DNA from: Protoeuglena noctilucae
Taxonomy: Eukaryota
Direction of reading: 5' to 3'
Length of the DNA stretch: 64,000 nucleotides
Assembly: GCA_958009085.1 (NCBI GenBank)
Contig: OY253679.1
Coordinates: 1-64,000 of the forward strand
Shown here: positions 8,201-63,850 of the stretch, one piece after another
How positions within the stretch are numbered: position 1 is the stretch's first letter
Layout: every line of letters starts with the position of its first letter
Notes under the pieces: generated by a model
Database searches by the model: none
Told to the model about the DNA's origin: nothing
The model's input: the letters and a program-made list of their open reading frames with translations, nothing else
Position numbers and translations under genes: made by a program

Positions 8201-10139
8201 CTCACCTTCCCTGGCCCGGAACGTCCCCCACCGGAACTGCAGGGCGGAGAGCACCGCGATGGCGGCCCCGATGCCGATGGAGCCCAGGAAAGTGGTGAAG
8301 AACTCCCCCGAGGCACGGCCGATCGCGGACCAGGAGACCTCCTGAGATGAGGAGATGGGTGCGGTGGAGTGAAGTGTGACGGGTTGATGGTGAAAGAGGG
8401 AGTGAGGGAGTGAACATGTTGATTTACCACATCCGTACAAGTGTGAGTGCATGCTAGGATGTCTGATTCAGACCCATACCCTCACCTGCACGAGGAAGCG
8501 CTTGAATGCCCTGTACAGCACCATGGCCACGGCATCGTTGAGGACGCTCTCCCCAAACACCAATGCGTACATGTCCTCGTCCACTCTGGGGGGATGGGGG
8601 TGACGATGTTCATGATAATTGATATATAGTCGATATGCATAGAAAACTATTCATAAATGTAATAATCAACGTCAATTAATTATTAATTACTAATAATTAC
8701 TAATAATACATTGATAATGTGACATGCAACGCGCATCCACCACCCACCCAGCCCCCCTCGCCTGAGCATTTTGAATATGTTGAGGACGGTGACGGTGTCG
8801 GTGGCGGAGATGACGGCGCCGAAGAGCAGCGACTCGACGAATGTCAGTCGGAAGCACAGGCGCATGGCGCCCAGCAGCCACATGACGACGCCCACGCCCA
8901 CCGCAGACACTGGGGGTGGGTGGGGGGGAGGTTTGAATGGAGCGAGTAGCAATGGATACGTTACTAGTAATACACTGATTGCTGGATGTGAAGCACAAAA
9001 GCATGGCACCCAGCAGCCACACAACGACGCCCACGCCCACCACAGACACTGAGAGGAGGTTATACAGGTGCGGGTACGTAGTTACCGATGCGCTGTGAGT
9101 AGTGCTAAGCAGTTCCGTATCTAAACCAGTTGATAAAAGTAGTATTAATACTATTCATAATACCGACTGTCATCTTTGTCTCACCGAGCGTGCCCCCGAA
9201 TGCGAAGAGGAGGATGGCCCCGAAGTTGTTGCTGAAGGGGCCAGGGTCCATGGTGGAGCCGGACTCGAAGATGATGGGGGGGAGAAGGAAGAGGAAGAAG
9301 AACTGGGGGGGGTGGGGGGGGGGTATGGAGGGAGGAGGCGAGTGTTAGTAGTGATACTAGTAGTAACAGTACTAATATATGCACCATACCATGCTTATGT
9401 ATCATAACCACTAAGTTTGTTTTATTCATAATAACACACGCCAGCCATGGTCCTCAGCACCTTTCTCTCAACAGCTCTGCAAGCCTGCTTCGCAATCAAC
9501 ACCGGTCTTGCCCATGCACACTGCCCACACCGCCCCCTTTCACACCCACCGACCCTCTCACCTCCGGGCTGAAGGAGAGGAACTCCGTCTGCCTGGTCTC
9601 GCTCGCAAACGCCGCCGTGATGGCCCCGGCGACCATCCCGATGACGAGAGAGGACGAGGCTTCGGGCATGTACCGCGCGATGCGGGGCGGGAGCGCGTCG
9701 TCGATCCAGAAGCCCAGGACGATGGCCGCGAGGAGCAGAAGGAGCAGAATCATGATGCTGAAGGAAGCGATGGACTGGGGACGGAGAAAAGACGGCGAGA
9801 TGCGAGAAAGAGTGGGGGAGCGCTGGGCGGGGGCTCGTGCACGCGCAGGGCGCTGCGCAGCGGGCGGAAGCGCTCCAGATGCAAATACAGTGGCATACTA
9901 AGCGCAGTCATTGCGATATTACCGCTGTAGTCGCTAAGCCGCGCGAGTGCGGGTGGCGGGAGAGGGCGCAGCGCTGAGAGGCCGCGGGCGACGCGCGCGG
10001 GGGCGATGGCCCTCGGCGCCGCAGCGAATGCATGACAGGCCAGAGGTGATGCGCGATGGATGCGGCCGCGGGTTGGTGTGGCGCTGCGGGGGCGCGCAGG
10101 CCCATCACCAGCGCCTGAACTCGCCTCGTGGCTCTGCAT
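5293..10139 (-). CDS. NHX: Na+/H+ exchanger, CPA1 family, endosomal NHX5/6-like; multi-exon, with a long low-complexity C-terminal tail
   Basis: Exons encode FFLFLLPPIIFESG, FGAVISATDTVTVL, YALVFGESVLNDAVAMVL, AEGLELSGIVAIL and WFSGLRGGMAFALA. The first exon (MQSHE, GC donor) is tentative. Confidence 0.93.
7704..7800. repeat. Intronic (GGTGAT/AGTGAT)n then (AAT/AAC)n low-complexity repeat
   Basis: Read directly in an NHX intron. Confidence 0.8.
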
Positions 10140-10865
10140 GAAGCCCTCTCGCAAGGCAGGGCCCACCGCTTCGGGCGAGCCCACCGCTTGCAAAAGCTTC
10201 CACATCCTGCCGGCCGAGCCATCCGCGCGCAGCCCGCGGCCCGAGTAGCCAGGGGCTCGGACCGATCGGGCTGACCCTTTCGCCCGCTGCGCTTTGCCGT
10301 GCCCGCGGGGCGCCCGCCAGATGTCAGAAAGCGACGGAGGTCAGGTCCCGCGGCCCTCTTCGACGGTCCCGAGGTCGCTGCACTACGACCTCGGGCGGCA
10401 CGACCCAGCACGTGCTTTGCTACGCGATGCGCGGGCCGGGAGCGCTCGGCAGCGGTGCCCGTAGCCGCAGGGAGACCCTCGGAGTTTGTCCGTTTATGGC
10501 GTTGCCACTAAGCCAGGAATCAAGAGACCAGCTGCACCTTTTCTGGGTACGTACCCTCATCAGTGCCTACCCGCTTGAATAGCGCAAGAGGGGCGACTGT
10601 GACGGTAGATGAGATGGGGACGAGGCGAAGGCGGTGGGTGCGACGCGGTGGGTCTGAAGAAAGTATATTGTGTCAAGAGATCATGACAGGACAGCGACGC
10701 GCCGCGCTTCAAAAGTCCCGGCCGGGCGACCGCTGCGCCGCAAAGAAGCGAAAACGAAGAAGGAAAAGAACCGAAGAAGGCTCTGCCGGGCGCGGGGAGG
10801 CGCGGGGAGGCGCGGGCGGGCTGTGGGAGGTCAGCGACCTGGCTTGCACGCGCGCTTGTCCCCCT

Positions 10866-13800
10866 TCATGCCCTGCCGTCGTTGCCCAACCCCAGGACGT
10901 GGGTGCGGTACATGCCGAGTGCCCAGATCGGGAAGATATTCCTGCGGAGGATTCAAACCGGGGACCTCTTTTGTTCTGCACTAGTTCAGAGTAGCTGATC
11001 ATGGGTTGCCACTGCCACTCCAATCCCCTCGCCTGTAGTTGGAGTAGCTGATCATGCAGTTGCGGTTGAATACCCCGATGATCTCCTGCTGCGGCCAGTC
11101 CCCGTCGCTGCACTGGGAGCGGAGGAGGAAGCGGGCGGCCGCGTCCAACGGGCGACGGTCCACGCGGTGGTAGCCGGCCTGGAGGGGGAGAGGAAGAGAG
11201 CGATGATTATAATAGATTGTGTGATAATGACATGTGCGGTTTTATGAATGGTGTCAGATAATGCGACGGTCCACGCAGCGGTAGCCGGCCAACAGTCCTG
11301 TGCATTCCCAATCCATCCCACCTCAAACACCCCATGTCATCTCATCTTACCTCCATGAGTGCCAGCATGGCCCAGGCCGTGTTGACCACGTGGCTCCTCC
11401 CGTCCGGCAGCTGCGTGTACTCCTTGTCTTGCGATGAGAGGTACGACTCGCCCCAGCCGCCGTTGTCCCTGGGGGGATGGGGGAGGGATGGGGTTAGAGG
11501 GAGTGGGTTGGAAGGGGGGAGTGGGTAGTGTTCTCTACAATCGTATCATCCACTCAGCACTCCCGTCAAAGGCCCTTTCCCCTCCCACTCCCTCACCTCT
11601 GCTTGCTGAGGAGGAAGTTGACAGCATCAACCACTTATTCACGCTCACCCCACCCCCCACTCCACTCCCTCACCTCTGCTTGCTGAGGAGGAAGTTGACC
11701 GCCTTGCGCATGTGGGCGCTGCTGTCGTAGCTGAGACCCAAAGCTGCCAGGCACGTGCACCCGAACCACCCCGCGTAGGTGAAGCACACGCCCCAGGATC
11801 CGTACCATGATCCATCGGGGCGCTGGGAAGACTCGACGAAGGCACGGCCGCGGCTGGGGGGGTGGGTACAGAGCGGGGTAAGGGTGAGTGGGGTGAGGAA
11901 GTGATTGGGGGGTGAGGGTGAGTGCGAGGGGTATACATGTCAGTGGGGTGACTGCATTGCCTTGGTATCACGTGCGTGGATTACATGATAGCAATTGCAA
12001 TAATACTGTTACCCATTAACCCCCCACTCACCGCAGCGCCGCGTGGATCTCCCTGGCCCTGTGCCTGGGGAAGCGGTCGCGGAAATAACACAGCGCCGTC
12101 ACACACGCGGTCGAGCATTCGACGTAGGAATAATCCACGATGATGTCGCCGAAGGTCTCCGCGGGGTTGAGGATCTCCAGCGCGTGGAAGGACCTGGTGT
12201 TTTCGTACGTCGCCCACCCCCCGTCCGCGTTCTGATATGACAGAATCACGTTCACGCACTCTTCCAGGCGACTGGGCGGGATGTGCTCCCCCACTTGGTC
12301 GGGCGGGTACTTGAGCATGGCCAGTGCTGCCTTGAGCCCCTCGGAGGAACAGTCGCTGATGGGCCAGCCGTGGTCTTGGGTTGAGAAGGGCCACGCGCCG
12401 TAGCTGATATGGCTGGGAGCGGAGGGGGAGAGGGGTTTTAGAGTGAGAGTGGTGATAATGAAATGTGATGGTGATAATGAGATGTGATGGTGCTATGGTC
12501 AGTGGTGGTCTTGGGTTGAGAAGGGCCACGCGCCGTAGCTGATGTGGCGTGGGGGGGGGGTGAGGTGGGGTGGGGTACAAAATAGTGTTGGTAATAACAA
12601 TAACAATAGCAGCATCTTGAGAATACTAATAATATTAATATTAAATAAATATAATGGTGGCAACACGGACTTAAATATCACTCATCAGTATTATTATTGT
12701 AATTGATGACAACAGATGCAATACATCACATATGCAACAACCGCACCCAACAACTCACCGGTACGCGTCCCTGAGGGGCTCCTGCGCCTCCGTCATGACC
12801 TGCGACCTCTCCAGGTAGGCGTGTGCCTTGCGCATCATGGGCATGAAGTGGGCAAGGATGTCGGAACCCACCGCGTCGAAAGCCTGGGGGAAGGGGGTGG
12901 GGATGTATGTATATTCAATAATATTAATATTAATAAGTATTTTTCATATGGAGGGGTGCTCAGCTGTGGCGCAGATGTAACTGGCATGGAACTGGCTTAT
13001 ACTCATTTTGATACTGTATTCGATAGCATCACGAACATGGCCCCTCGCCTGCACCGCGAATGCCGTGTCCCACAGCTGGCTGCCGTTGTATCCGGTCATC
13101 TTCAGGCCGTCCTCCGCCAGCCACAGGTAGTCTGCGTGGGCATGGTGGGTGGAACAATTACTATTATGTTTTATCGAGCGAAGTATAACGCTCACTAAGT
13201 GTGCTATCTATCTCTCTGCAAACCCTGGTAACCCCCCCACCTTGCACCCCAGGCAAGCGCTCTTCACCCACATTCAACACACCCCCCACCCACACCCCAC
13301 CCACCCACACCCCTCCCACTCACCTTGCAGCCGCGGCAGGTGTTTCTTGAACGCCAGCCCCGTGGGGTCCTCGAAGTAGCAGCAGAGCATGTTGATGACC
13401 TTGTTGACGGGGCCAATGTCGATGTAACGCGTGTTCTCGTCCTCGTAGTGCACCAGCCGCATGACCTCGGCACATGCGCGGTCGCTGGGTGGGAATGGAG
13501 AGGGGAGGGGCATTATAGCAAGAAGTAAGTAATGACGAAACAACGCTGGTGCTGTTAAGACGACTGCCGAGTGCCGCGTGCACCCAACGCATGGCAGTGT
13601 TCATCATTATTAATGTAATTACAATCATCATTACTATTAATGTCACTATCATTCCCCACCCACGCATATCCACAACTCACCGTATCCACTTGAGGGGCCC
13701 CCTCAGCAGCGGCTCCCCCACCCAGTGCAGCGTCCACCACAGCACGTCCTGCACCATGGGGTGGGGGTAATACAAATCCTCCTTGGCGCACGTGTTGCGG

Positions 13801-16059
13801 GCCTTGTCCCAATCGACGGCGTCGTAGGGAGTGGGGAAGAGCTCCTCGCTGCGAGGTAAGGGGAATAGTTGGAGTTGGATAGTACAATAATATGTAGATG
13901 GGATTTGTCCCGATCTATATCATCTAAGGGCACTTTCATGCTGAAAGTATATCTACTCGTTAACGCACTCACCGCAGCGACATGACGAGGGGGGTGATGG
14001 GCCCCGTGCCCCGTGGCTCCCTTGGCGTAGACGTAACACAGTATGCATTGTTATTGCTATCTATTATATAGTTAGTATAACTATCACTCACCGCAGCGAC
14101 ATGACGAGCGGGGTGATGGGCCCCGTGGCTCTCTTTGCATACAAATAGCACATGGGGAGGTAGACCATGCGGCAGTGGCACCAGAAGCGGCCGGGGTGCA
14201 AGTAGCCGATGCCCGTCCACTTGCTGAGGGAGGGGAGGGGGTGTCCAACATGAGTGGGGTGAGTGGAGTGGGGGTGAGTGAGAGATGGTGAGGGAGTAAG
14301 AGAGTGGGGTGGAGGTAGCCGATGCCCGCTTACTTGCTGAGAGAGGGGAGGGGGTGAGAGATGGTGAGGGTGGTGTGCAAGTAACAGATGCTATCTCCTT
14401 TACCATGACCCGCATATCACACCCCCCAACACAACCCCCACCTGTATGGCAGCAGCCACGTATCCACAAACACTCACAACAACCCCCCCCCCCCCCCCCC
14501 CCCCGCCCTTCACCTGTACGGCAGCAGCCACATTTCCGGGGGCAGCGGGTTCTGCCCCTCCCACTCGTAGCACCCCAGCACGGACAGCCAGAACTTGCCC
14601 CACGAAGTGCACGCCACCGCCCCTCCCCTCTCGTGCATCCAGACGCGCGCTTTGGACATGCAGGGTTCGTCCTGCGACACCCCCAGAATCCGAAGCGCGA
14701 CGTAGTTGAGGCAGGTGCCGAACATGGTCGAGTGACCCTCGATGTGCAGGCCGTAGCCGCCGTCGGGGTTCTGGTGATTCAGCACGTAACGAACCATCTC
14801 GTGGCTGGGGGTGGGGGGGGGGGGGGGGGGAAGAGGGGTTTGGTGTTATTATTACTTGTAATGTTTGGTATTATCAGCTATATTGATAGAGTGGCGGGCC
14901 GCAACGTGGCTGGGGACAGGGGGTGCTGAGTGTATGTTATTGTAATTGTCATTATCACCAACGTTTGATCGACTAGCGCATCATTACCAATACTAACCAC
15001 CATGCCCCTCCCACTCATCACCCCCTCACCGCTGCGCCTGCCCCAGCACCTCGTCCATCGTCCCCGTGACATAGCATGCAATGACCATGCCAGGCATGAG
15101 GAACATGGGCCCCCCGTAGTCGCCGGGGAAGTGGCCATCATCCTGCTGGAGAGTGGAATACATGGAGAGACCGGCACGCAGGGAGCGCTCGACCTGAGAG
15201 TTGGAGATGAGGGGGGTGTGGTTGTGAGGGTGTGAGTGGAAGTGTTGGTGCGTGGACAGATGCGCACGCAACGTACGCTGGACCTGCGCTGTCCATGTCC
15301 TTTACACAAAACATCCCCACCTGTCCCCATCCCATCCCCCCTCACCTGCGCTGCCGTGGCTGCCCCCTTGTCCGGCACGTCCGAGGTGTCTCCATTCAAT
15401 TACGACACATCCCAGCATATCCCCCATTTCACTCTAATCCATCAACTCATCCCCCTCACCTGTGCCGCCGTGGCTGCCCCCTTGTCCGGCACGTCCGAGG
15501 TGTCCACGCGCGGGGCCTTCCACCCCCGTGCCTCGGCGCGCCTCCGCATCTGCAGTCGGAGCATCTCGTCCGAAGAGTGCTTCTGGCGATCGCGGTGGGA
15601 GGCGAAGTGGTCGCGGAGCCTGGGGGTGGGTGGGGTGAGGGGTGGGGGGGTGAGGGAGGTGGGTGCGGCGGTCACGGCGGGGGTGAGAGACAGCGCATCA
15701 CCCCCGATGCACCACATGCAAAGTGGAATTGAATGGGCGTGTCTTCGCTCGCATCGCAGAGAGCACATGACATGATAACCACGCTCCGTTGCATTTCACG
15801 CAATACACTGGATCCACATGACCCGCTCAACCCAGCCCCTCTCTCACCTCTCGACCTCCGCGCGCTCCTCCTCCGTCCCCGCGCCCTCCTCGAAGACCCA
15901 GACCTGCCGTCCGACGAAGTTGTTCAGCGTGGTGAGGTGCGCGCTGCCCGCCGCGGACTCCTGGGCGCACTTGAGCGTCCACATCCCCGCCGGGGCCGCG
16001 GCGCGGGACGCGCCGTTCGCCGCAGCGTGGCTGAGCGCTTTGCCTCCGCCGCTTGGCAT
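10866..16059 (-). CDS. CAS1: Cycloartenol synthase (2,3-oxidosqualene cyclase), multi-exon
   Basis: [88 protein letters not shown] (His and Ile typical of cycloartenol rather than lanosterol synthases), [13 protein letters not shown] and [11 protein letters not shown]. Confidence 0.96.
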
Positions 16060-17599
16060 CGGGACGGGGGCCGCGGGGACCGCACGCGCGCCGCGGATGG
16101 CGGGAAGAGCAAGCGCGGCCTGCGCAGGGCGCGGGCGGGGCGGGAAGGGCTCCCTGCGGGCAGTGCGGGGCGCGCGCGAGATGGAACAAATCATCGTCGC
16201 GCATCGCGCCCGGCGCGGGGCGGGCGCCCGCGCGCAGCAGCGCGATCCGTCCGCGGGCCACCGCCCACCGAGGATCCGGCGAGCGGGCGGTCTCGGCAGG
16301 CCGGCCGGGCGCAGCGGCGGTCTGGAGGAACTGAATAAGTGCAACGCGCGAGGCGACGGCCGGCAGCGGCGCCGGGATCCGGCGGCGAGGCCCTTGGATG
16401 TGCACACGTGAGCGAAACGCAGCCCCCGCGAGCCCCGCGGGCCGTGGGCGGAGGTCGCACCTGTTACTATTGCGTTGAGAACGAAAGGGCGTCACGAGGT
16501 AGCCCTGAGCTAGCGGAGCGGAGTTGTGGCGGGGCGGGAGCGAGATGTGCAAGGACGCAAGTCTCCCTCCTTAATTCGACTCCTTCAGCTGAATCGGAGC
16601 TCAGCGCCCATCAAGATACCGACAAACATGCGCGGCCGAGCCAACCGTGCAAGGTGAAAGGGCGGGGGGGCGTCAGGCTTGCTGCGCCAGACCGCCCAGC
16701 CCGGACTGACACTGCCCACCAGTCTCACTGGCACCGCTCAGATACCGGCCCCGGCATTGAGACACCGGCGGGGCCTGGGACGATACCCGCCGGGCAACTG
16801 ACCTTTTGGGACCCCCCAGGGCCACGGTGAGCTTGGGGGTCGGCCACGATGCGCGTCACGGGGGTGGGCGTGCCATGTTCCCAAAGCCTGCCTTAGCCCT
16901 GCGCTGCGGCCACGAGGCTGTGGCGATGGTAGGGGCCGGAGTCGGCCTTGGCCAGGAGCACTGCATCAGCCCGCAGTTCAACGCCGATGCCCTCAGGGCC
17001 GGGTGCTTGTGGCAGCGCTGGCGCGATGACAGCGATCGCCTGCGCTGACAGGCGGGGCCCCGCTTAAAGGGAAGTGCATGCCGCAGCGACAGCTACGACC
17101 CCCACTGCATGCCGCAGCAACGAACCCCGGCACAGCACAGCCACAGCGCCATGAGCAACAGCAAGACCCAGCGGCAGGCGTAACCAGTCACGGCGTCAGT
17201 GTGTCCTGGGCGCCAACCCCCGGGCCACCAGCACGACGTCCGAGTCGTCTGATGACTCTTCACCGCGGCTGCGCTTCTCGCTCACGCCTTTGACACAGGA
17301 CCGGCGAGGTCGGGACGGAGGCCCTAGTGCAGGGACGGGGGATGGGGACGGTAGCTGTGATGCAGGGTCGGGCAGCTCCACGAACTCGGCCTCCCTGCGA
17401 GGACGCGGTGGTGGGGCTACCGCAGTGGGACGAGTTCGCATGAGTCCGGGAGGGGCCCCACTCGTGCGAGTAGGACTCGGCGCGTCGGCTGTAGCTTGCT
17501 GTGCACCGTGCACCGTGTCAGCAGCATGACTAAGCGGGTGACGGAGCCCCAACCCGCGCCCGGTAGCTCTAGTATGATTAACGGTCCACTACGCAGGCC

Positions 17600-19155
17600 T
17601 CACCATGCAGCTTTGACACGCCTGGGACGCTTTGAATGCCCCGAGGTGATCCCGTTCAGCACTTTCTGGAAGCGCTTGTACGTCTCCTTGTCGAGGTTGC
17701 TCCCCGTTGCCACCTCCGACTCCGACCGGGGGAGAAACTTCCGATTCCCCTTCATAACCACGCATAAGGGAGTCCTCATGACGACACCATCCATGTCGTT
17801 CTCCCTTTGCATCTGCCGCAACTTGTCGAGGTGCTCGCGGGGGAGGAAGGCGATGTTGCCGTCCGGGATGTCGAGGCCCTTGGCCGCCGCCCACTCCCGC
17901 ACGGCCGCGTTGAGGCAGGGCCACAGCAGGTGGGGCAGCATGCCTCTCGCGTCGACGCAGTGGGCGAACCCTTGGGCAGAGAACCCATCGGGGTCCTCCA
18001 AAACCACGGCCCGGCACCGCTCGCGCACGCCCATGATGTGCGGCAGCGACCAGGGCAGCGCGACGTCCGTGGCCGCCGTGACGCTCGAGCGGATCGTCAC
18101 CACCTGGTGCACGCAGCCGGCCGGCACGACCACCACGTCGCCCGGGGCTTGCAGGAAGACGAACGGGACGATGCCCCACCGCTCCATCGCCGGGAGGTCC
18201 GACCTCGTGACCCGCAGCTCCCTCCGCTCCACGGGGTGGGTGAGCCGGTACCGATTCTCGAGGAAGGCGTCGAGCTTGTGGCGGTCTGCACGCGACCACA
18301 CGAGCCACACGGCGGCCGCAGGGCCGACGCCGGAGTCTCCGCCGTTCATGGCGGGCACAGGTGCCACCGAACCACGGCATGGGGCCCAACTCACGTGGTG
18401 CAGCCGCCCCCCTTGCGAACAGTTCCAAAAAAGAGAGCTCCATCGGCAACAATCCTGAAACGAGCCAATACTCGCAGGTGTGGCGTGTCTCCTGCGCTTG
18501 CTTCCCAACCGCGTGCCGGAGCACAAACATGACCTGTAGAGGACGATGGGGGAGACATTAAGGGTGTAGAGTGCAGTGGTGACAAGTGTGGCTGTGCTTC
18601 GCTCACCTCTTTGGCCGGGATGCGCCTGACGTAGCATTGGAGGCATTGTGCACTATGGCACAAAGCGCCGCGGCCCGTGCACTGGTAGAAATGCAGCGAG
18701 AGGGCCGTCCTGCAATGGTCACACACGATTGGCCTCCCTGGCGGCGTATACGAGCGGATCGGTAACGGCCTTGGGAAAGGCGGGGACGTGCTGTACGTGG
18801 GACAGAAGGCCTTGTCAAGCTCGGCCGACTCGAGGTCCTGGTGGTGACCTTGGAGTACCCCATTCGCAAACGCTCGTAGCCAGGGGAGGGCGTCGTAGGC
18901 GGCGGCGGCGTCCACCTCCATCTGCGGGCATCGCGCTCTGTGTGCTGCGAATGTACGGTTGCGGCCCTGGCTCTGTGGAAGCCCCGGCGCCGGCGCTCAT
19001 CTGCTGTGCGGGCGCACATGCAACTTACGCTGACGATGCGCGCCCCGGGCGGCGCCGCGCGAGGCTGGGGGGCCCGCGGGCGGGGCTTTTTGGTGATGTT
19101 GAATAGGGTTTGGGAACCTCCCTCCCGATCCTGCCCTTCTCCGGCGACCGGGCTG
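17600..19155 (-). CDS. KDM3/JMJD1 (JMJ25-like) JmjC protein with upstream Cys/His zinc finger; probably catalytically degenerate; gene model incomplete
   Basis: CDHCRTALSLHFYQC..CHSAQCLQC, then AVWLVWSRADRHKLDAFL..HPV..WGIVPFVFLQAPGDVVVVPAGCVHQV..SSVTAATDV, matching the KDM3 JmjC C-terminal half. The frame join between the two blocks is unresolved. Confidence 0.7.
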
Positions 19156-20039
19156 CAGAGATCACAACAAATCTGTCACAGGTGTATCGACGGACAGACC
19201 ATCGGCCCAGAAACGGGCCATCCGGCGCCGGGACGGCCTCGGTGCATGCACGGACATGAAGCGGGCTGCATGCCTGTCGGAGTGTCGGATTGACGTTGCG
19301 AGGCCACGATGCAGTCTGAACGGTGACACAGAGTGAAGTGCTGGGCCGTTTCGTTGATGGGCAAGCACGCAAACCTCAAAAGCCACTGCCCGACAGAGCC
19401 TCGAGTCCTTGTAAACTGCGTCAGACGCGACAGAAAACGACTGTGTCCCAACCTGCACGAGGCGGGGTGCTGCAGAGGCCCAGGGGGGCGAGCCTTTTCG
19501 GGCAGGGCACTGCTAGGGTGCGTCCCCAATTGCACCAAGGCTGGGCGTCTCAATACGTGATTTTCCTCTCATGCCATTTCTGAGAACTTAGCACGACTCC
19601 TGTCGGTGGTCGGGCCCCATCGCTCAGGCCCAGGCATCGCGCGGCCTGCAGCGTGCTTGGACATGTGGGCGCGGTGACCCGAGAGGCCCCTTGGACGTGG
19701 TTTGCGCCTTCTCCGAAAACGTTGATAGCCCAAGAGGCGTACTGGGATGCCGGAGAGCGCTGTGTGAGTTCCTACGATGCAGGCGGACGATGCGAACCTG
19801 CCACTCCGGGCCGAATCTCGGTCCGGCGGGCGCTCGCCTTCGCCGACCTTCGCGGGGACTCTCGGTGACTCACCGCGGCTTTCCGTGAGAGGAGCTCTGC
19901 ACTCCATCGTCCGCCAGTCTGGGTGAGGGGTCCGCACCGACCTGCCGCGCCCTTTCCGCTCCGCGCTGCGCCAAGGACGCGCGCCTGCGACCGTCCGCGG
20001 CGACGCACGCATCGTGTTCCATCGTCCCTTCGCAGCGAG

Positions 20040-29287: not shown

Positions 29288-29538
29288 AGCGAGAGACCTG
29301 CGGGGATTTGCGTGACTCGGTTGCACTGTTGTTGTTTGTTCTATTTGACGGATGATAACGCTATCTGATGGCAGCGTTAGTTCGCGGTGTGCTTGAACGC
29401 GTGACTGGCACGATGCGGCACGGGAAGTCTCGCACGGTGCGTTTACGTCCGCGCTTTCGTTGCTGTCGCTGCGATGTATGCTTGCAGTAGCTCGCTCACG
29501 CACAAGATATTTGGTAAAACTCGGCGTCAGGAGCTTGC

Positions 29539-31697: not shown

Positions 31698-31840
31698 AGC
31701 GCTTGGTATGTATTGCAGGAGATGGCGGGGTGGGAGACTGGCAAGCGTGGTAATGTTGGTGATCCTGGTGACTTGAGTGGGATCATGATGGCTTGGACTT
31801 GGTATGTACTGCTGCTGGAGATGGCAGGGAGGGAGTCTAC
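31608..31840 (+). repeat. ~100-bp degenerate tandem repeat (two and a partial copies) spanning the murG stop codon
   Basis: GGAGATGGCGGGG.GGGAGACTGGCA..GGTGATCCTGGTGA..CTTGGTATGTA recurs at ~31610 and ~31718, with a partial copy at ~31817. Confidence 0.85.
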
Positions 31841-49900: not shown

Positions 49901-51579
49901 ATATCTTTATTATATAATATATATAATTAATATCGACATCTCTTTTCCCCCTTTCTCCCCCTCCCCCCAGGCCCTCGATGACAAGTTCTACATCACGCGC
50001 GACGGCCTCTACCAGGCACCCCACGACTGCAGCAGGGGCCGGGTGCTTGAGTATCTGAAGAACCTGCCCGCCACGGAGGGCCCCGAGGTGTTCGGGATGC
50101 ACGAGAACGCAGACATCACCTTCCAACTGCAAGAGACGAGGAGGGCCGTGGACGCGATTCTGGCGATGCAGCCGCGGGTGGCGGCGGGGGCGGGGAAGCG
50201 GCCACCGGCCGAGGTGGTGGCGGCGCTGGCGGCGGAGATAGGTGAGTGGGGGATGAGGAGTCCGATAATAGGGGAACGAAGGTGTTGTCAGTGGTAGATG
50301 GGAAAGCGGCCGCTGGCCGAGGTGGTGGCGGCGCTGGCGGCGGAGATCGGTGAGTTGGGGAGTTATATGAAGGGTTTTGGTGATTGGCATGAGATATTAA
50401 TGGTAGATGGGGATGGGTGAGGGGGGTTGTGGTGTGGTGGATGGTGTGAGGTGGTGGCGGCAGAGAAAGGTGAGCAAAAGAGTTATATGAGGAGGTTTAA
50501 TTACTGGGAATTAGATGTGAATGATCGATGGGTGTGGTAGATGGGGTGCAACGAATGGGGCTGACTGCAGATGCCCGTTCTCAACCCCCCTCCCCTTCCC
50601 TCCCCCCCAGAGGCCTCCCTCCCCCCACCCCTCGACCTCTCCCTCGCCCCCTCCAACCCGGAACGCAACCCCTTCGCCCCCATGCCATCCGGCCACGACA
50701 ACTCATTGGGCATCGTGCTGCGGCAGGAGGCCGACCGATTCCAGGCCCTGCTCTCCGCCATGCGCACGTCCCTGCAGGACCTGCAGCGCGCGATCCAGGG
50801 ACTGGTGGTCATGAGCGGCGATTTAGAGGCCATGTTCGGGTCCTTACTCGACAGCCGCGTTCCCGCGTTGTGGGAAGCGAAAGCGTACCCCAGCCTCAAG
50901 CCGCTGGGCGCCTGGACGGCCGACTTCCTCGACCGCATGCGGTTCGTCGCCGATTGGATCACCCGGGGCGAGCCCGCGTCTTTCTGGCTGCCCGGGCTCT
51001 TCTTCCCCCAAGGGTTCATGACGGCGGTATTGCAAAACCACGCGCGCAAGACCCAGGTGCCGGTGGACCGCCTCAACTTCGCCTTCGAGGTGCTGCAGAC
51101 CGACGACGTCGGGGGGCTGGAAAAGGGGCCGACGGACGGGGCGTTCGTGCATGGGCTGTTCTTGGAATCGGCCCGGTGGGACCCGGTGGGAGGGTGCCTG
51201 GCCACGGCGGCGCCACGGGAGATGTACGCGAGGCTCCCAGTCGTGCACCTCGTCCCGCGCGTCGACTACGAGCCGCCGGAGGACGAATACCAGTGCCCGC
51301 TCTACAAGACCAGCCTGCGGTGAGGAGTTGTTATGTGTGGCCAGGCGTTGCGGGCTGCGGGAGGCTGCAGAGGTTGCGGGTTGAGAATGCCGGCACGGGG
51401 AGGGAGAGATGATGAAAGTTGCTGCATCGTCCGTTCCTCACAGGGCCGGCACGCTCAACACGACGGGCCAGAGTACCAACTTTGTGCTGTACATCTCACT
51501 CAAGCTGCCCGAGACGCTCAGCGCGCCGTCGTTCTGGACGCTGCAGGGCGTTGCGGCCCTCTGTGCGCTCGACACGTGA
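34999..51579 (+). CDS. Axonemal inner-arm (single-headed) dynein heavy chain, DNAH6-like
   Basis: P-loops GPAGTGKT, GPTGGGKS, GLSGVGKS and GVGGSGKQ, plus stalk and MTBD. C-terminus CPLYKT..RAGTLNTTGQSTNFV. N-terminal YKPYDLKVV..YTMSAQGVTH..FRLWKGF..WKNYVR resembles the DNAH6 group. The first three exons are tentative. Confidence 0.95.
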
Positions 51580-52031: not shown

Positions 52032-55000
52032 ATGGTGAAGGGATCCTCCTCCGTGCCGCTCGTCAACGGCCTCCCGATGAAGGTGCGGGCGCGCGGTGCG
52101 CGGCTGGACCCCTTGCGCGCACGGGGGTCCGCGGGGGGCGGCCCGCGGGCGGCGCGGACCCCGTGGCGCGCCCCCTGGCGGGCGTCCCCCCTTTGGCCTG
52201 CGGGGCCCGCGCGCGCGTCGCAGCTCCCCGCCGCGCCCTCCGCCCCCGCGACGCGCTTCTCGTTCACATTCTCTCGCACGTGATGCCACGCAGACCGGGG
52301 CCTGGGATGCGGACGAGGACGAGAAGCTCGCATCGTATCAAAAGCTGTACGGCAACAAGTGGTCCGTGGTGGCGCAGTTCATCCCCGGGAGGCAAGTTTT
52401 GGCTGTATAATGCATGTATCTTGCTAGTATCATCGGATGCGCGCGTGGAGAGGCGTTCGCGGGGTCGGGAGCGACGCCAGGGTTTGCTGCATATGGTGCC
52501 CGCAGGACCGGGCAGCAGTGCGCGCAGCGTTGGCGCCACAAGGTGAATCCGAACATCAAGAAGGACAAGTGGACGCCGGAGGAGGACGCCCTGCTGACGC
52601 AGCTGGTGGCGGAGCACGGCAACCGGTGGGCGGAGATTGCGAGGCACATGGACGGCCGCACCGACCAGCAGTGCATGGGGCGGTGGACGAGGCACCTGGA
52701 CCCCAACATATCCCGGTGAGGGACATTTGAGTCGGGAATGAGGAGTAAGTGGGTGGAGGGCCACACATGTTGTGCCGGCATGGGTGCACGGGCGCGCATG
52801 GGGGGCAATGGAACGGGGGCGCATTGAGGGTGCATGACGGGGCATGCGTTCAACACTGCGCCTCTCCTTTACCCACCCCAACCACTCCCCTTTCCACCCC
52901 CTCCCTCCCTTACCCACTAACTCACCCCCCTCCCTCACCCCACCCCCCCGCAGCGAGACCTGGCGCCCCGAGGAGGACGCCCTGCTCATCTCATTACACG
53001 ATCAGCACGGCACCCACTGGTCGCGCATCTCCAAGAGCCTCCAGGGACGCACCGCACAGCAGTGCCGGGCGCGGTTCTTCCAGATCCGGGGTCCCGGGGC
53101 GGCGGGGGAGGTGGACGGGGAGGGGAAAGGGAGAGGCGAGGGGGGCGGCGGGGGTGGGAGGGGGCGGGTTGGCAAGCGGCGCAGCCGGGCGGGGGACGAC
53201 GGGGAGCTCGAGTCGGACCCGGAGTTCGAGGTGAGGGGGGATTTGAAAATGGGAATGCGGAGTGGGAATTTGGATGTGGGATTTGAGTGGAGTGTGTGCG
53301 AGTCGGCTCCCCTCACAGCCACCTCGCTGTCACTCCCTTCCTCACCCCCACCCCCCCTACCCCTGTAGTACCTGGGCAGCTACCGTCCCCACCCATGCGC
53401 TGCCATCTCCCTCACACCATCACCCCCACTTCCCACCCCCACCGCAGCACCTGGGCAGCTACCGCCCCCGCTCCTCCCGCCGCGCCGTGGTGCCCCGCCG
53501 CAGCATCGGCGACGCCGCGCCCTCCCGCCCGGCCCCCGAGGCACTGCCCCCCGCGCCAGAGCCGGTGCCAGAGCCGGCGGTGCCAGAGGCTGCGGTGTCG
53601 GGGCCGGGGCGGGGGTCGGTCGGGGGCAGGAAGGGGCGAGAGGAGGGGGAGGGGGCGAGGGGGAGGGAGGGGCGTGGGGGCAAAGAGAAGGGGGAGGGGG
53701 GGAGGAGGGGGCTGGTGGCAGAGGTGGCGGGTGCGCCGTTGCAGGTGCGTGCGGGTGGGGGTTAAGGGTGTTTGTGGGATATGCGGAAATGGGGTTGTAA
53801 GTGGGTTGTGTGCGTGTGAGGGGCTGGGGGTGTAGATGTTTGGATGGGTTACAACGTGGATGTGTGGACTGGGCCGCGAGTGCGTGCGTGCAGCCGCCCA
53901 CCCTTTCCCGCCCCCCCCGCCCGCAGCCCCTCCACCCCAACCACCCCATCCCCACGCCCGGCCTCCCCGTCAAGCCGCAGCCCCACCGCCCCAGCCGCAC
54001 CACCGCCCCGCCCCACCCCCACCCCCACCGCGCACCCCCCGCCGGCACCCACACGGCCGGCGGGGGTTCAAACCCCGGCGGTGGCCCGAACGGCACCAGC
54101 AATTCGAACATGAACTCGAGTTTGAATGGTCCGCACCCCGGCGGCGCGATGCGGGGCGGTTGGGCGCCCCGTCCCCTCGTGAGGTCGGCGTCGGGGGTCT
54201 CTGCGGGGGAGGGCGCGGGTCTGATCGAGGCGCTGCTGACGTCGCCGGCCAAGGCGGCCGCGCTGCCGCTGGTGAGTGATGGATGGGGGTGTGTCGATGA
54301 TAGATGATGGCTTGGTCTGCTGATTGAGGCCGTGATGGGGGGCGATGGTCGGGGTGGCTGCGCTGCCGCGGGCAAATGGCGTGCATCTTAATATAACTCC
54401 ACTCTGTGATTGCGTGTTTGCAGTTCGCCCCGTCCACCAGCACGGCCGACAACACCCCCACCAAGCTCCTCTCGACCCACAGCCTGTCGCCCTTCCCGGG
54501 AAGGGACAACGCAGGCGAGCAATTAGCATGGGGGGAGATGCGAACCGGCACGCGATGTTCTAGCGTGGTTTGTATAATTGAGAAGCACTCCAGCGTCCAT
54601 GCCTGCTTGAGAGTCCATCCCGCACTCACCCACACCCTGTATCCCCACTCACTCACCCACCACCTTCACCCCCACCCCCACCCACTCAACCCGCCCCCTC
54701 TCTCTCCCGCTCGCAGCCGCCCCCACGGCCCCAGGCGCCCTCCCTCCCCTCCTATTCGGCCTCACCCCCGCCCGCCGCCACCCCAACGCGCGCCACCCCC
54801 CCTCGGCCGCCCCGACCTGGCGGGGCCTTCTCTCCCCCGGAGCAAACGCCTCCGCGTTCGCATCGCCGGCGACGGCAGACCGGCGACTGGCCGTTGACCT
54901 GGCATGCCCCTCGTCCGCCCCCGACTTGCGACCCCCGATGCTGCCGAATGCCACGCCCATCTGCGGGGCGCTGGGGGACGCGCCGGCGCTGGGAGAGGCC

Positions 55001-56513: not shown

Positions 56514-56559
56514 CTGTGGGTGAGGGATGGCGTGGAGAGTGAGCAAGAGTGAGTTATGG

Positions 56560-56759
56560 NNNNNNNNNNNNNNNNNNNNNNNNNNNNNNNNNNNNNNNNN
56601 NNNNNNNNNNNNNNNNNNNNNNNNNNNNNNNNNNNNNNNNNNNNNNNNNNNNNNNNNNNNNNNNNNNNNNNNNNNNNNNNNNNNNNNNNNNNNNNNNNNN
56701 NNNNNNNNNNNNNNNNNNNNNNNNNNNNNNNNNNNNNNNNNNNNNNNNNNNNNNNNNNN
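56560..56759. other. Assembly gap (200 N)
   Basis: Run of N. Confidence 1.
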
Positions 56760-56827
56760 TGCCCACACACCTGCCCCACATATCATGACACCCTCATCAT
56801 AGCACTCATAACTAACAACCCCACTCA

Positions 56828-58388: not shown

Positions 58389-61300
58389 TCAGTGCAGCTT
58401 GCGCAGCTCCCATCCCCCGGCTCCGTCCGTCAGCCGCAGCTCCGTCTCGTGGAAACGCACCAGGGCTGCGGGGCATGGCGTGACATGGGAGAGCGGCATT
58501 GAGGGAAACTGTGTAGTCGTAAAAATCTTAATACATGGAGCTATAGTGCACTACGTGTGGGACACTAACCGCACCATACCCACATGCACCACACCCCACC
58601 CCCATCTGTGCTCACCCGTCCGCTGCGTGATGGTGACGAGCGTGATGCCCCGATCGGTGGCCAGCTGGTACAGGTGCTCCTCGACATCCACGGAAGTCGC
58701 GTTGGTGCACTCGTCCAATATCGCGAACCGCGGCTTGTGGAAGAACAGCCTCGCCATGCCCAGGCGCTGCTGCTCCCCCAGCGACAGCGTCTCGCCCCAC
58801 TCCACCTCCTCGTCCCAGCTGTACCGCTCCGCCAAATGCCGCAGCCGCACGTCGCCCATCAGCTCCCCCAGCCTCGCGTCCAGTGCGGCGCGTGCCGTGC
58901 GCCTGTCCTGGTTGGGCGCGACCCAGTCCGCGGCCTCGTCGGCGGTCAGCGGATAGACCAGCTGCTCACGCAGGGTGCCTGGGGTGGTGTAGGGCTTCTG
59001 GGGGACGAAGAAGAGCTCGCGGTGCAGGCCGCGGTGGGTCTGGGGCGTTGGAGAGGAGAGAGAGGGGTCATTTGCAATTCTAACTGTCTGAGATGGTGCT
59101 CAAATTAATGGATGCATTAATCAATGACTCGTAAGTCAATCATCAACACCAGTCACCTCTGGCTTGACCAGGTGCCCCGACACGAGCGGCCACAGCCCCG
59201 CCAGCACCCGCACGATGCCCGTCTTGCCCGACCCATTGGGGCCCGTGATCAGCGCCCCCTCGCCCTGCCGCACCGCGAGCGTCAGCTTGCGCGCCAGGAC
59301 ATTGCCGGTCGGGGTAACCACGGTCACGTCGCTGAGGCCGACGGAGGGGCCGGCGGTGGCGGTGGGGGCGGAGATGGTGAGGGCGGTGGCGGAGCGCTGG
59401 GGGCGGGGGAGAGGAAGTGGGTTGGTGGGTTACTGTGGTATTGTATAGTTTACAGATATCTAACGGTATTTATCACGAGAGTGTCACGCTCGCCCACAGC
59501 CACCCGCAGCGCAGCACCCGAGTCATGCTAGATCAGCGAAAATAATCATCAAACACTCAACAATAACAGTAACAATAATGACAATAATAACATAACAGCG
59601 ATCCTCGCCTTCATGGCCGTGGACGCCCTCGCGGCCGACCGGAGCGCGTCCCTCAGCTGCGCCACCCGCGCCACCCCCCCCGACATCTCCACGAGTCGCT
59701 TGTGCAGCGAGAGCACTTCCCCGAAGGCGATGAACGTGTTGGTGACGATGCTGGCCAGATAGCGCATGTTGTGCACCATCTCCGCCTGCACGCGGCTGCT
59801 GCCCCGGTCGCCCTCGTACGCGAGCGCGTAGAGCTGGGGGGGGTGTGGTTGGGGTGAGGGAGGTTAGTTATTGTTATTATATGTGATTACACTTAATGTA
59901 ATCATGTTACGCATTGTTGGCATCGAACGCCAACGAGTAGAGTTAGGGGGAGAGTGGTGAAGAACTCGTCGGCCACACCCACAGTCATTGACTACTACTT
60001 ACTATCAAACACTATCAACAATCTTATAATCACTCACCAGGGTGAGCAGCCAGGTGACGTTGTGGGGCAGCTGCCGGGTGAAGAACTCGTCGGCCACCCC
60101 GTGCGCCCACCGGGTCGTGGCGGTTTGGCTCAAGTGGCGCATGTACCGCGAGAAGTGGTCCTCGATCGCGGAACCCTCGCGGGGGCCACCACCAAAGAAG
60201 GCCACGCTCTCGGCGTTGGTCCTGGGGTGGGAAGGGAAGAGGGGGGTTGTGGAATTAGTTGCTATGATAGCGACTTACCAGCCATTTGAAATTGTTGAGA
60301 GTTCGGTTATCAATAGTCGTATCCGCCCTCCCACTCACCTGAGCCGCGCGTGCATGTTGCGGAACACCCCCTCCAGCGCCGCCTCTTTTGCTGCCATGAG
60401 ACCGAAATCAGGCGTCACGGCTTTGAGTGCGCCCAGGCCCAGCAGCATGTAGAGGTACGCGAGCGAGAGGCCGCGGGTGCCTGCGATGGGGGGGGGGGGA
60501 TAAGGGGATTGGTATTGTTTTTATATATAGTGTTTGTCATGTAGAGGTACGCCGGGAGAGGCCGCGGTAGACGACAACCACGCGACGTCAAACTACCAAC
60601 TACGCATCTGTCTACTGTTCTTATGACATAATATAACATCTAATAATCCACCGACTCACCGGTGAGCATCCACATGCGGGAGGAGAACCACACGATGTCC
60701 ACCACGGGCTTGACCATGGTGGGTATCAAAGAAGCCGCGTCGTTGCAGAGCCTCTCCACATCCCTCACAATGCGCTGGTCGGCGTCGCGCATGCCGGCGA
60801 TGTTGGACGCGAGGTACAGGTTGTTGCCGGAGAAGTACTGGGGGAAGTTAAGAAAGAGATGGTTGGTTGAAAGGGCTGTTCTACTTATTCTCATTATTAG
60901 TTAGTATTATTATTGACACTGTTACAATCCATTATAACTATCAATGCTGTTATTATATACATCTGTAAATTTATAATAGTCCCTCACCCCCTGCGCGAGA
61001 TCCGAGGTGATCCTCCTCCTCCACGACAGCGCGAGGGAGTCGCGGAGATTATCACCTGCCTTTGTTATAATTGCATTTGTAATTCCATAATCATCATATA
61101 TAATGATATATAACCCCTCACCCTCTGCGCCAGATCGGCCGTGATGCGCCTCCTCCACGACAGCGCGAGCGAATCACTGAGGTACTTGAGGCTCTGGGCC
61201 ATGATCGCAGAGAGCATCGACTGAAACACCGACACGCCCATGAGTCGCCGGAACCGGGGCAGGTCCTGCCGCAGCACGTAGTGCACCGTCATGCCGTTCA

Positions 61301-63850
61301 AATTGGCAATGCGGTCCTGCAATGCCGTGCGCAGCACCACCACCACGCCGATCAGGGCCTGGGTGGGGAAGAGGTTGGGGAGATGGTATTATGATCTCGT
61401 AGAGTGATAACTATGATGATCGTAATAGTAATGAATGACAGTGTGGCACCTTTACGTCATCCAACCACCACCCTATCCCACCCCCCACCAGCTCCACCAC
61501 CCCACCGACCACCAGTCAATCATCCCACCCCCACTCACGAGCCTCCGCCACTCCCCCGCCCCCCCACCCCCCACCAGCTCCAAGAAACGCCCCACCGCGC
61601 CCCACGTCGTCAGCCCCGCCCCCACCACCCCCATGCCCGCCTCCCGCGCTCTCTTCGCAAGCTCCGCGTCTTTTTCACTCCCCTCCTTATCCGCAGGAGC
61701 CCTCGCGATCACCTCACCCCCCACCACCCCACCCGCACCCGCACCCGCACCCGCGCCCTCCCCGCTCCCCTTCCCACCCCTCGCCATCCCCTGCAGCACC
61801 TCCAGAGCGTGTTTGGCTCTCTCATTATCCCCGCCCTTCCCACCCCCGCTCTCACCCTTACTCACACCCTCCCCACCCGCACCACCACCGCCCCCCACCA
61901 CCCCACCCGACCTCGCGTCGTGCAACGACCACCCCCCCTCCCCATCCAGATGCAGCACGATATCGTGGAAAGCCATCAGCGCCGGGCGGTGCGAGATCGT
62001 GACGCACGTGCACCCCATCTCCTTGACGGTCTTTGCGAACCGCTCCTCCATGTCGTTAGTCACCCCGGACGTGCACTCGTCCAATATCGCGAACCGCGGC
62101 TTGTGGAAGAACAGCCTCGCCATGCCCAAACGCTGCTGCTCCCCCAGAGACAGCGCCTCGCCCCAATCTACCACGTCCCTCCGCCAATCGCCCCGGTCAA
62201 GCAAAGGTGACAGATCCACTTGGGCGAGCAACGCGCGCACGTCGCTCTCGTCCACCCTGGCGTCCCCGGCTCTCGCGGGGTAAACCAATTGCTCCTCCAA
62301 TGTCCCGATCGATACATAGGGGCGCTGGGGGACATAAAAGATATCGGCGGCAAGCCCGCCGTCCCCACCGGCCCCCGGCTTGCGCACCACTCCCTGCGTC
62401 AGGGGCCACAGTCCGCCCAATACGCGGAAAAGCGACGACTTGCCGGCTCCGTTGGGCCCCGTGACGAGGAGGTGGGTGCCCCTTGGGACGCTCAAGGTGA
62501 GGTCGCGGACGAGGGGGTTGCCGGAGGGGGTGAGGACCATGGCACGGTCGAAGGAGATCTCGTCCTGAGGGTAAGAAGCGAAGGAATGCGCTCATATATA
62601 TAATTGGCGTCGTTTTGGTATCACTAGGTGCGATCTATGTGAGCACCATGGCGCGGTCGAAGGAGATCTCGTCCTGAATGACCAAGGGAGAGTGAGTAGC
62701 TGTAGTGTGGCTGAAATATGATATAAACTATAACTGCAACACGGTTGGTAATCATGCAACCACTCGCCTGCGACGACTCCACCACGCCCGTCGGCGCCTG
62801 CATCAGCGCTGTACATCAATGCCATCTACACGAACACCTTAACAATACTAAACCAATACATAAACAATACATACCATCACTATAACCCACCCACCCCCTC
62901 GCCTGTGATGACTCCACGACGCCCGTCGGCGCCTGCATGAGCGCCCGCATCCGCTCGGCCTCCGTCGCCCCCGATTCTGGCGTTTCAGGGGTCCCCGACC
63001 CCGGCAGGGAGACGTGGGACTGGCCGGCCGAGCCTAACTCGCGGATCACGCGCTCCATCTCGTGCACCCTGCAGGGAAGGGGGGTGGATGGAAATGATGC
63101 AATGTTATCTTTGTGATGCAAGCAGTTTGTCTTATTTTAAGTATTATAATAATAAACATGATTGGCAGATAGAATAGCAACAATAGATGGAATAGCGGAA
63201 CGCGCATGTAGTGGCACCTCACTACCATAACAATAAAAATAACAGGAAATGATTATTACGATACTACTACCAATGCACGAACATCCCTCGCCTGTCCGCG
63301 TGCGCGCTGAGCTTCATGAGCTTCCGTGGCGACGCCGCGAGCGTGCCCATGGACTGGAAGAGCGTGATGATGACGCCCGTGTGGTATCGCATGTTGGAAA
63401 GCATCTCGGCACGGCCACGGGCGGTGGCTTCGGGTCTGGAGAGGAGGGGGGGGGGTTGAAATGAAAGGGCTGGGTTAGATGGGATGGGGTTATTGGTCAG
63501 TGAGACGTACTGGTTCTCACCCTGCCTCCTCGCCTAAAGTGCCCGTAACAGGCAACATTGATAATAACGATAGTGACAACTAAACAATAACAGACTCGCC
63601 TGAGGTGCCCGGAGAAGAAGGGCCCGATGACGAGGATGACGGCCGCGGTGGCCCCCAGGTATTTCAAAAAAAAGTCCTGCACCATCCCGAACCGCCACTG
63701 CGTCCGCTGCACAGCGGCCACCTGGGAGGTCGCGGCATCGAATCCCCGCGACACCGTGCGGCTCTCTTTTCCCATGCCGCCGTACAGGGCCACCGACTCG
63801 GCGTTGGCGCGCAGGCGCGAGTGCAATGCGCGGTACGTGCCCTCCAGGGA
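58389..63850 (-). CDS. Full-size peroxisomal ABC transporter, subfamily D (PXA1/COMATOSE-like); 5' end lies beyond the window
   Basis: [23 protein letters not shown] (EAA motif), NBD1 [37 protein letters not shown], a second TMD ([19 protein letters not shown]) and NBD2 [17 protein letters not shown]. Stop at 58389. Confidence 0.95.

Follow-up and report, generated by a model that had tools for sequence, protein, structure and literature searches.

The first 64,000 nucleotides (nt) of contig OY253679.1 of Protoeuglena noctilucae (positions 1-64,000, hereafter the window) raise the question of how introns come to hold direct copies of the edge of the neighbouring exon, and how these copies come to differ from that exon chiefly at silent sites. 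In this study, such an intronic direct copy is called an echo, and the sequence between it and the live copy is called the spacer. We confirm that echoes are real DNA within introns, and we show that they decay like noncoding DNA and that their synonymous-site divergence exceeds their own decay.

Exon-edge copies within introns

A first-pass annotation of the window had reported copies of exon edges in introns, and this is borne out by the alignments: 21 of the 24 pairs that it listed are solid (non-overlapping local alignment score of at least 41), with lengths of 24-72 nt and identities of 77-98%. The three weak pairs are 10990/11042 (25/28, gapped), 54253/54353 for the listed 54221/54320 (17/20), and 63531/63596 (15/17). 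Moreover, two echoes were found beyond the listed pairs, at 14435-14465 (of 14507-14537) and at 27013-27033 (of 26961-26981). An offset scan for near direct repeats (at least 21 of 24 matches, offsets of 30-400, low complexity removed and the telomere array excluded) returned 36 entries in the window vs. 0-1 in each of 10 shuffles made inside 60-nt windows, which preserve local composition. Exon-edge echoes account for 23 of the 36 entries, and almost all of the remaining 13 are G/C-rich arrays of short period, low-complexity matches, or a single 99-nt tandem repeat. This last, at 31649-31835 (period 99, 1.9 copies, 79% matches), is the sole true ~100-nt tandem repeat in the window. Near repeats were direct in 30 cases vs. 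inverted in five, and all five inverted ones come from a single poly-C/poly-G pair. The excluded array comprises 40.5 copies of CCTAAC (a TTAGGG-type repeat, (CCCTAA)n) at 2-244, because of which the start of the window is probably a chromosome end.

The gene content of the window is intron-rich, with a GC fraction of 0.54-0.71 per 2 kb, and includes a Na+/H+ exchanger gene (Pfam PF00999), an oxidosqualene/cycloartenol synthase (OSC) whose best named relatives are Volvocales (75-79%), a WD40-repeat gene region, a dynein heavy chain gene, a gene without assigned identity near 53-54 kb, and an ABCD-type ABC transporter gene. Among the gene models, that of OSC alone has a transcript basis: the 860-amino-acid protein P0001, which lies on a contig of 2,842 nt and matches the query exon at 100% identity, maps exactly to the minus strand, where it defines 14 exons separated by 13 GT/GC-AG introns. 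The frames of the remaining genes were taken from open frames with a GC content at third codon positions (GC3) of 0.81-0.95. The echoes catalogued, with the first live copy for orientation, are as follows.

8851-8912, minus strand: live copy of the Na+/H+ exchanger exon start with CAG, acceptor side (alignment)
8990-9051, minus strand: echo of 8851-8912, 55/62 identical (bridged by contig 8753-9275 of metagenome run X6)
10982-11009, minus strand: weak gapped echo of the OSC exon end 11036-11063, without splice site (alignment)
11263-11290, minus strand: echo of the OSC exon start 11152-11179, 26/28, mid-intron, without splice site (alignment)
11579-11625, minus strand: echo of an OSC exon end and 19 nt of intron, 11655-11702, 45/48 (alignment)
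12497-12565, minus strand: echo of an OSC exon start and pyrimidine tract, 12362-12433, 63/72 (bridged by contig 12370-12534 of metagenome run X5)
13966-14036, minus strand: echo of an OSC exon end and GTGAGTG, 14085-14148; 42/43 beside the junction, weaker farther off, with a 7-nt insertion
14306-14356, minus strand: echo of an OSC exon start and 20 nt of intron, 14193-14243, 45/51, with TGG>TGA/TAG
14435-14465, minus strand: second echo in the same intron as 14306-14356, from the OSC exon end 14507-14537
15337-15390, minus strand: echo of an OSC exon end and GTGAGGGGG, 15451-15504, 52/54, both differences synonymous
21450-21477, plus strand: echo of the exon end 21393-21420, WD40-repeat gene region
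22141-22187, plus strand: echo of the exon end 22016-22062, 44/47
23633-23792, plus strand: two successive echoes (23633-23690 and 23740-23792) of the exon end 23515-23572
27013-27033, plus strand: short echo (ATGGAG and GTGAGGGGGTG) of the exon end 26961-26981, outside the original list
38396-38612, plus strand: two echoes (38396-38449 and 38564-38612) of the dynein heavy chain exon end 38258-38311
50300-50546, plus strand: two echoes (50300-50361 and 50442-50474) of the dynein exon end 50192-50253
53347-53390, plus strand: echo of the acceptor and exon start 53432-53469
59956-59979, minus strand: echo (23/24) of the exon-internal 24-mer 60077-60100 of the ABCD gene, 38 nt from the donor site
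60538-60567, minus strand: echo of the ABCD exon start 60446-60476, without splice site
60981-61047, minus strand: echo of the ABCD exon end 61115-61181, 56/67
62639-62677, minus strand: echo of the ABCD exon start 62530-62568, 37/39, both exonic differences synonymous
62757-62809, minus strand: echo of the ABCD exon end 62892-62944 including a rare GC donor, 47/53, with four synonymous and no nonsynonymous differences

The geometry computed over the 25 echoes of the window is anchored to splice junctions. Eighteen copy the 3' end of an exon (donor side) and seven the 5' end (acceptor side), with a median offset of 114 nt (interquartile range 92-135), a median exon part of 35 nt (range 10-60), a median reach into the intron of 7 nt, and a median spacer of 63 nt. 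One end of the similarity lies -4 to +21 nt from a splice junction in 24 of the 25 (p ~1e-20 vs. uniform placement over -50 to +150 nt), and similarity ending at the junction is what is expected if only constrained sequence stays alike. Many echoes retain a consensus splice site, and the splice-site part itself has been copied, beyond mere consensus, since the rare GC donor is shared by 62892/62757. With one mis-set pair excluded, mismatches in the copied splice-site flank came to 8 of 170 aligned sites, a rate close to that of first and second codon positions. Double echoes occur at three junctions; among the 13 OSC introns seven hold echoes, and one of them holds both a donor-side and an acceptor-side echo.

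The sequence that follows the echoes also resembles that of introns. Downstream of echo donor sites, C is scarce over 32 nt (0.10), as it is at true intron starts (0.07-0.09), and the C fraction at +46 to +100 of echo-free introns is 0.19-0.23; compared with +61 to +100 of all introns, which includes echo sequence, the C content after echo donors differs at p = 0.0003 (Mann-Whitney). This intron-start-like composition supports a model in which exon edge, splice site and adjoining intron form one copied unit. The intronic part of the units had been described as usually not alignable, and so it is in most pairs, but not in 14193/14306, which share a 17-mer, nor in 38396/38564 and 50300/50442. 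The dead dynein units 50300/50442 align over 103-105 nt including the intron part, and their exon-like and intron-like parts have diverged about equally, which is the look of neutral decay. With regard to the introns themselves, those of OSC (10869-16125) are tripartite, with a G/T-rich and C-poor start (C ~0.07-0.09), an AT-rich core of low complexity, and an end rich in C, and 2 of the 13 have a GC-AG splice pair. The spacer of the pair 12362/12497 holds a 19-nt unit repeated 2.3 times (95% matches) at 12450-12492, which suggests that spacers also grow by local slippage.

The echoes recur in read-derived contigs. The region 8,700-24,000 was compared with k-mer contigs of four runs, namely X1, which is labelled with the organism and is possibly the source sample; X5 and X6, which are metagenome DNA from another study; and X9, which is metatranscriptome RNA. 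For 11 of the 13 adjacent pairs of this region, the spacer together with both copies, in whole or in part, is present in contigs of X5 or X6; these are contigs and not raw reads, so that rare variants would be missed. Examples are 12577-14471, 15628-24000, 9336-11614, 12370-12534, and 15353-15496 in X5, and 8753-9275 and 13340-14471 in X6, and the bridging pieces listed show no differences save four in one 8.4-kb piece. The pair 11579/11655 is bridged, among the contigs listed, by X1 only, and the pair 14435/14507 is interrupted at a poly-C run in all runs. The short bridging pieces of X1 have a depth of 132-148 vs. 143 in the flank. The OSC exon 14514-14804 is flanked at the intron ends by a run of 26 C (14483-14508) and a run of 24 G (14807-14830), and the read-derived contigs all break at these runs.

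With regard to expression, the scope is one RNA run and one transcript-derived protein. At each of the 13 OSC introns, P0001 contains the copy next to the exon, and an RNA contig, X9-25, uses the same sites at at least eight of the junctions of P0001. No use of an echo as exon was seen in P0001 or in X9-25 (one RNA run).

Echoes are also found in relatives, which are metagenome contigs matched by a scan with P0001. In the first, L074 (best segment 82% identical), 8 of 12 near repeats are of the echo type, and six of these eight lie at OSC exon edges with offsets of 77-130 nt and with splice sites included; the entries 9089 and 12475 were judged by eye only, and 12475 lies outside the OSC match. 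In the second, a single species represented by three assemblies (L025, L026, and L037), there is a double echo at one OSC acceptor site. The echoes of the relatives are at junctions other than those of the window, and such differences in position between species show that the process is recurrent and that echoes are short-lived. Moreover, the introns of the relatives are neither AT-rich nor G-run-rich, so these features are not needed for echoes to form. G-quadruplex-prone G/C runs as the anchor were rejected in the same way, as relatives without such runs show equal anchoring.

Other features of the genes that carry echoes deserve mention. The dynein gene contains one open exon of 2,335 codons at 42856-49860 (plus strand), spanning the motor domains AAA_6 to AAA_lid_11, which contrasts with the intron density of OSC (one per ~150-300 nt) and may stem from introns having been lost on a large scale in the central part of the gene. 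In the ABCD gene, a 102-nt patch at 58705-58806 is 94% identical to 62071-62172 (minus strand) and joins two nucleotide-binding halves whose coding sequence flanking the patch is only ~50% alike; judged from the sequence, this looks like short-tract ectopic gene conversion. The sole gap in the window consists of 200 N at 56560-56759.

Divergence between echoes and live exons

Mismatches were classified on the codon of the exon, over 25 pairs in the window and 33 pairs across the three species (eight from the relatives). The hand count of the first-pass annotation, 39 synonymous to 19 nonsynonymous differences, was not reproduced; our recount gives 54 to 41 over the 25 window pairs, and 72 to 48 when the relatives are included. 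The silent-site excess itself is nevertheless upheld when counted per site: over the 33 pairs, differences number 23, 23, and 74 at first, second, and third codon positions on ~400 sites each, that is 5.8%, 5.8%, and 18.5%. The argument that neutral decay of a dead copy should give the reverse excess proved too simple, since the live exon adds synonymous changes, and the null places 46-50% of all differences at third positions. Observed was 62% (74/120; binomial p = 0.0067 vs. 0.5 and p = 0.0004 vs. 0.46). Under a mutability-class null, in which A/T, G/C, and CpG classes are taken from first and second positions and the exon branch runs at the full neutral synonymous rate, at most 31.6 third-position differences are expected in the window, where 57 are observed.

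The kind of change is also informative. Changes between C and G number 20 at third positions vs. three at first and second positions combined. Among exon codons that end in A or T, 16 of 26 have a different codon in the echo. In a weighted regression across pairs, the third-position rate equals 0.159 + 0.43 x the first/second-position rate (confidence interval of the intercept, 0.114-0.210), and this positive intercept implies that undecayed echoes would already differ from the exon at ~16% of third positions. Several echoes differ from the exon at synonymous sites only. In the triple formed by 23515 and its two echoes, two third-position sites carry three different bases each, and the dead copies differ mutually at synonymous sites only (the split Arg codon being our own reading). 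Echo stops and frameshifting indels are present, for example TGG>TGA/TAG, and because of them the echoes are taken to be noncoding and free of constraint.

A calibration of these values is offered by two OSC contigs of one metagenome assembly, L027:1-1547 and L029:4435-5971, which are haplotypes or sibling species and indicate that diverged lineages of such algae co-occur. Their exons (GC3 0.93) differ by 4.4% overall, third positions at 18 of 180 sites (10%) and the other two positions at 1.7%. Their mid-introns are 52-70% identical with many gaps. From this comparison, silent sites change several-fold more slowly than introns in the clade. With a 5.8% change in the dead exon part, a duplicated intron part should stay ~88% identical; this is not seen, and old tandem duplication alone therefore fails. 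Units that had diverged while in working genes would resemble echoes, with silent differences, splice consensus kept, and introns near-unalignable.

Origin of the echoes

The explanation that we favour, tentatively and at somewhat less than even confidence, is that imprecise repair from a diverged homologous copy left the echoes behind as scars. It is close to one of two ideas put forward with the first-pass annotation, in which a diverged exon edge and intron start are pasted in; that idea gives the best fit, although no donor lineage was found and a splice site is missing from four echoes. A break near an exon-intron junction would be repaired from a diverged homologue of the gene, which could come from another haplotype or a sibling lineage once present in the same nucleus, and a patch of ~100-140 nt comprising the exon edge, the splice site, and the first or last intron part would be copied or taken from this donor. 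When synthesis or incorporation crosses the junction into the heterologous intron, annealing would fail, and end joining instead of annealing would fix the patch to the resident end, leaving two homologous units in tandem. The unit continuous with the exon body would be spliced normally, and the other edge with its splice site would become intron and decay; each event would lengthen the intron by ~100 nt, and the scar would be neutral. We infer that the divergence predates the event, as we infer the nature of the donor and the repair pathway. The idea fits best because of the third-position intercept, the excess of changes between C and G, the turnover of A/T codons, the sharp junction end, and the intron-start-like composition; indirectly, the third-position excess, the C/G changes, and the A/T codons fit the differences found between functional genes. 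In Chlamydomonas, polymerase theta physically builds short homologous DNA into breaks independently of Rad51 (PMC8604939); this shows the needed chemistry in the class and not the echo event itself.

Several observations weigh against repair from a diverged copy. No donor was found: over 16.4-20.4 kb X1 is one contig with a depth of exactly 143, the X1 pieces listed include no long one of 90-95% likeness, and no extant paralogue or homeologue donor is visible in X1 among the contigs listed. Present diversity is low, with four differences in 8.4 kb between X5 and the window and six mismatches in 15.6 kb between L026 and L037, and a donor divergence of ~16% at third positions is at the level of sibling species and not of alleles. 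The implied inner introns of three OSC donor-side echoes, at 152, 124, and 129 nt, fall below the range of the six OSC introns that lack echoes (165-228 nt). Echoes without a splice site (10982, 11263, 59956, and 60538) sit mid-intron, and one of them (59956) has its source 38 nt inside the exon. The amino-acid changes are no more conservative than random (mean BLOSUM62 -1.06 vs. -0.66 under the null), and the synonymous share shows no over-dispersion among pairs (p = 0.30), so two age classes are unsupported. The first ~40 nt of the L027 and L029 introns are still fairly alignable, whereas most window spacers are not. Finally, the relatives were all reached via OSC, and a feature special to this genomic neighbourhood is possible. 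With regard to the donor, 21 of the 45 contigs of X5 that were placed are only 90-95% alike and rarely continue into unlike sequence, and these could come from a co-occurring diverged lineage.

A broader version of repair from a diverged copy, possible but doubtful in our view, is that introns of this chlorophycean clade grow and turn over via repeated exchange with deeply diverged gene copies, at ~16% synonymous divergence, each echo being a dated fossil of such an exchange. The sources proposed are hybrid zygotes, lost homeologues, and environmental DNA, and the resident edge of the exon, with its intron, would be kept in the echo next to a foreign edge that had been pasted in.

Among the rivals, we consider it rather unlikely that the template was the own copy of the cell. 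An intron break would be repaired by polymerase-theta-type or template-switch synthesis, which would be primed by microhomology resembling a splice site and would insert 25-75 nt of the exon edge nearby; the insert would then decay. Such insertion makes an external donor unnecessary, and it accords with the spacer and the sequence beyond the echo being unrelated in most pairs, with the four splice-site-less echoes inside otherwise normal-looking introns, and with the lengths of OSC introns after removal of the echoes (63-277 nt, mean ~175), which are near those of the echo-free ones; polymerase theta is active in a related alga (PMC8604939). However, the third-position excess and the nonzero intercept are left unexplained, the sequence after the echo has intron-start composition, and the ends of the source are clustered at the junction, as given above. 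Moreover, inverted copies are not seen in the window, and complex intron-to-intron echoes are nearly absent among the 13 non-echo scan entries. A check of polymerase-theta features gives copies that are direct and nearby, none inverted, and junction-pinned, with microhomology inseparable from the repeat itself.

Insertions of other kinds were also tried as a source of the spacers and rejected. Spacers are not patchworks of nearby sequence, since no exact match is longer than the longest obtained in shuffles, except for a 17-mer at 14244-14305 and a 13-mer common to two dynein spacers. A spacer repeat family suggested by the motif AATGGTGGC, picked by eye, came to three occurrences only. With regard to an Introner or transposon family, the far repeats are only G/C-rich low complexity and one ABC-domain patch, and the spacers have no long matches elsewhere. 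An Introner with a foreign insert is contradicted by the pair 60077/59956, in which 38 nt of the spacer fall within a Pfam ABC_membrane_2 alignment (profile positions 204-263 of 269). A large insertion with a long target duplication would imply a 37-nt pre-event intron at 10942-11032, and the coding sequence in one spacer contradicts it.

It is improbable that echoes are old junction-spanning tandem duplications whose intron parts became scrambled and whose exon part was kept alike by gene conversion from the live exon. Plain tandem duplication had already been judged not to fit, rightly so, for in most pairs the spacer is no copy of the sequence beyond the echo, and Tandem Repeats Finder (TRF) calls no pair. 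Flank tests of head-to-tail duplication reach z > 4 in 3 of 48 and z > 2 in ~10, and the even spread over codon positions that it entails (46-50% at third positions) is contradicted by 74/120. The version with scrambling and conversion can draw on residual unit similarity (the 17-mer of 14193/14306, z = 7.1 for 38396/38564, and 103-105 nt for 50300/50442), on the short-tract ectopic conversion suggested by the 94% ABCD patch of 102 nt, and on short tandem arrays, which are common in introns. By reasoning, though, conversion erases synonymous and nonsynonymous differences alike and so predicts no third-position excess, a third-position divergence of 18.5% would require conversion to be rare, and the only true ~100-nt tandem repeat found by TRF is the one at 31649-31835.

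That echoes are functional, as alternative exon ends, decoy splice sites, or regulatory elements under selection, is very improbable. Many do keep a consensus splice site, and the differences of several are purely synonymous. Nevertheless, the offsets are mostly not multiples of three; the spacer of 15337/15451 (offset 114), the sole one read in frame, meets a stop at its sixth codon; positions differ between related species; and the one RNA run and the transcript-derived protein use the exon copy only. The second idea that came with the first-pass annotation, coding selection on the echoes, is not supported, given the stops such as TGG>TGA/TAG, the frameshifting indels, the random-looking, nonconservative amino-acid changes, and the absence from the RNA examined. 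Coding selection acting via echo-to-exon conversion was rejected by reasoning, as 18.5% third-position divergence makes conversion too rare, and alternative or mutually exclusive exons were rejected because echoes are partial edges with at most one splice site, with stops and indels, and are absent from P0001 and X9-25.

Lastly, an assembly artefact, in which two haplotypes or gap-closing overlaps were placed in tandem, has the typical look on its side (exon-like similarity, unalignable intron, offsets near read length, and a 200-N gap in the window) and is hardly credible, being contradicted by the 11 of 13 pairs bridged by independent X5/X6 contigs at flank depth and by the same pattern in unrelated metagenome assemblies of two relatives.

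Meaning and comparison with known systems

If echoes do record repair from diverged homologues, they would reveal a mechanism for lengthening or replacing introns without a change in the mRNA, and, for algae regarded as haploid and clonal, a record from which earlier hybridisation or template use could be read. Local break-repair duplication, the plainest reading, does not account for their tight anchoring at splice junctions or for their synonymous-site excess. For annotation, echoes are decoy splice sites and exon-like fragments that may mislead gene finders and haplotype-purging tools. Full-text searches of the literature returned no description of introns that copy a neighbouring exon edge and diverge from it at synonymous sites. 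Junction-spanning duplication and imprecise homologous repair, as components, are known kinds, and it is the recurrent, junction-anchored, silent-site-diverged pattern in three algal lineages that appears to be undescribed.

In the duplication model of intron gain or expansion, a tandem duplication arises across a splice site; Farlow et al. reportedly worked on intron gain in Drosophila (PMC2809761 and PMC3296678). Echoes are like such duplications in having a junction-spanning direct repeat, a silent extra splice site, a longer intron, and an unchanged mRNA. They are unlike them in that the units differ outside the exon-like part and show mainly third-position differences, and in that existing introns are extended and none is created. 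False haplotype duplications, which occur in assemblies, likewise place two diverged versions in tandem with similarity limited to conserved sequence, whereas echoes are found in independent read-derived contigs at single-copy depth. In intron homing, flanking exon tracts are co-converted, so that donor exon edges travel with the donor intron into the recipient allele, as proposed for echoes; in contrast to homing, the resident edge is kept as a duplicate and not replaced, and the introns are spliceosomal and without an endonuclease.

In imprecise homology-directed repair, homology seals one side and end joining the other, so that the homology arm ends up duplicated. Echoes share with it tens of nt of homology duplicated beside heterologous sequence, and the pathway exists in a chlorophycean alga (PMC8604939). 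The laboratory repair in PMC8604939 used supplied donors, whereas echoes are natural, fixed, and recurrent. Introners are transposon-made introns with target-site duplications (PMC9860276). As in the Introners of that source, an intron repeats adjacent exon sequence, and introns are added to on a genomic scale in algae. Unlike Introners, the spacers form no dispersed family, the repeats measure 24-72 nt and not a few nt, and one spacer carries conserved coding sequence.

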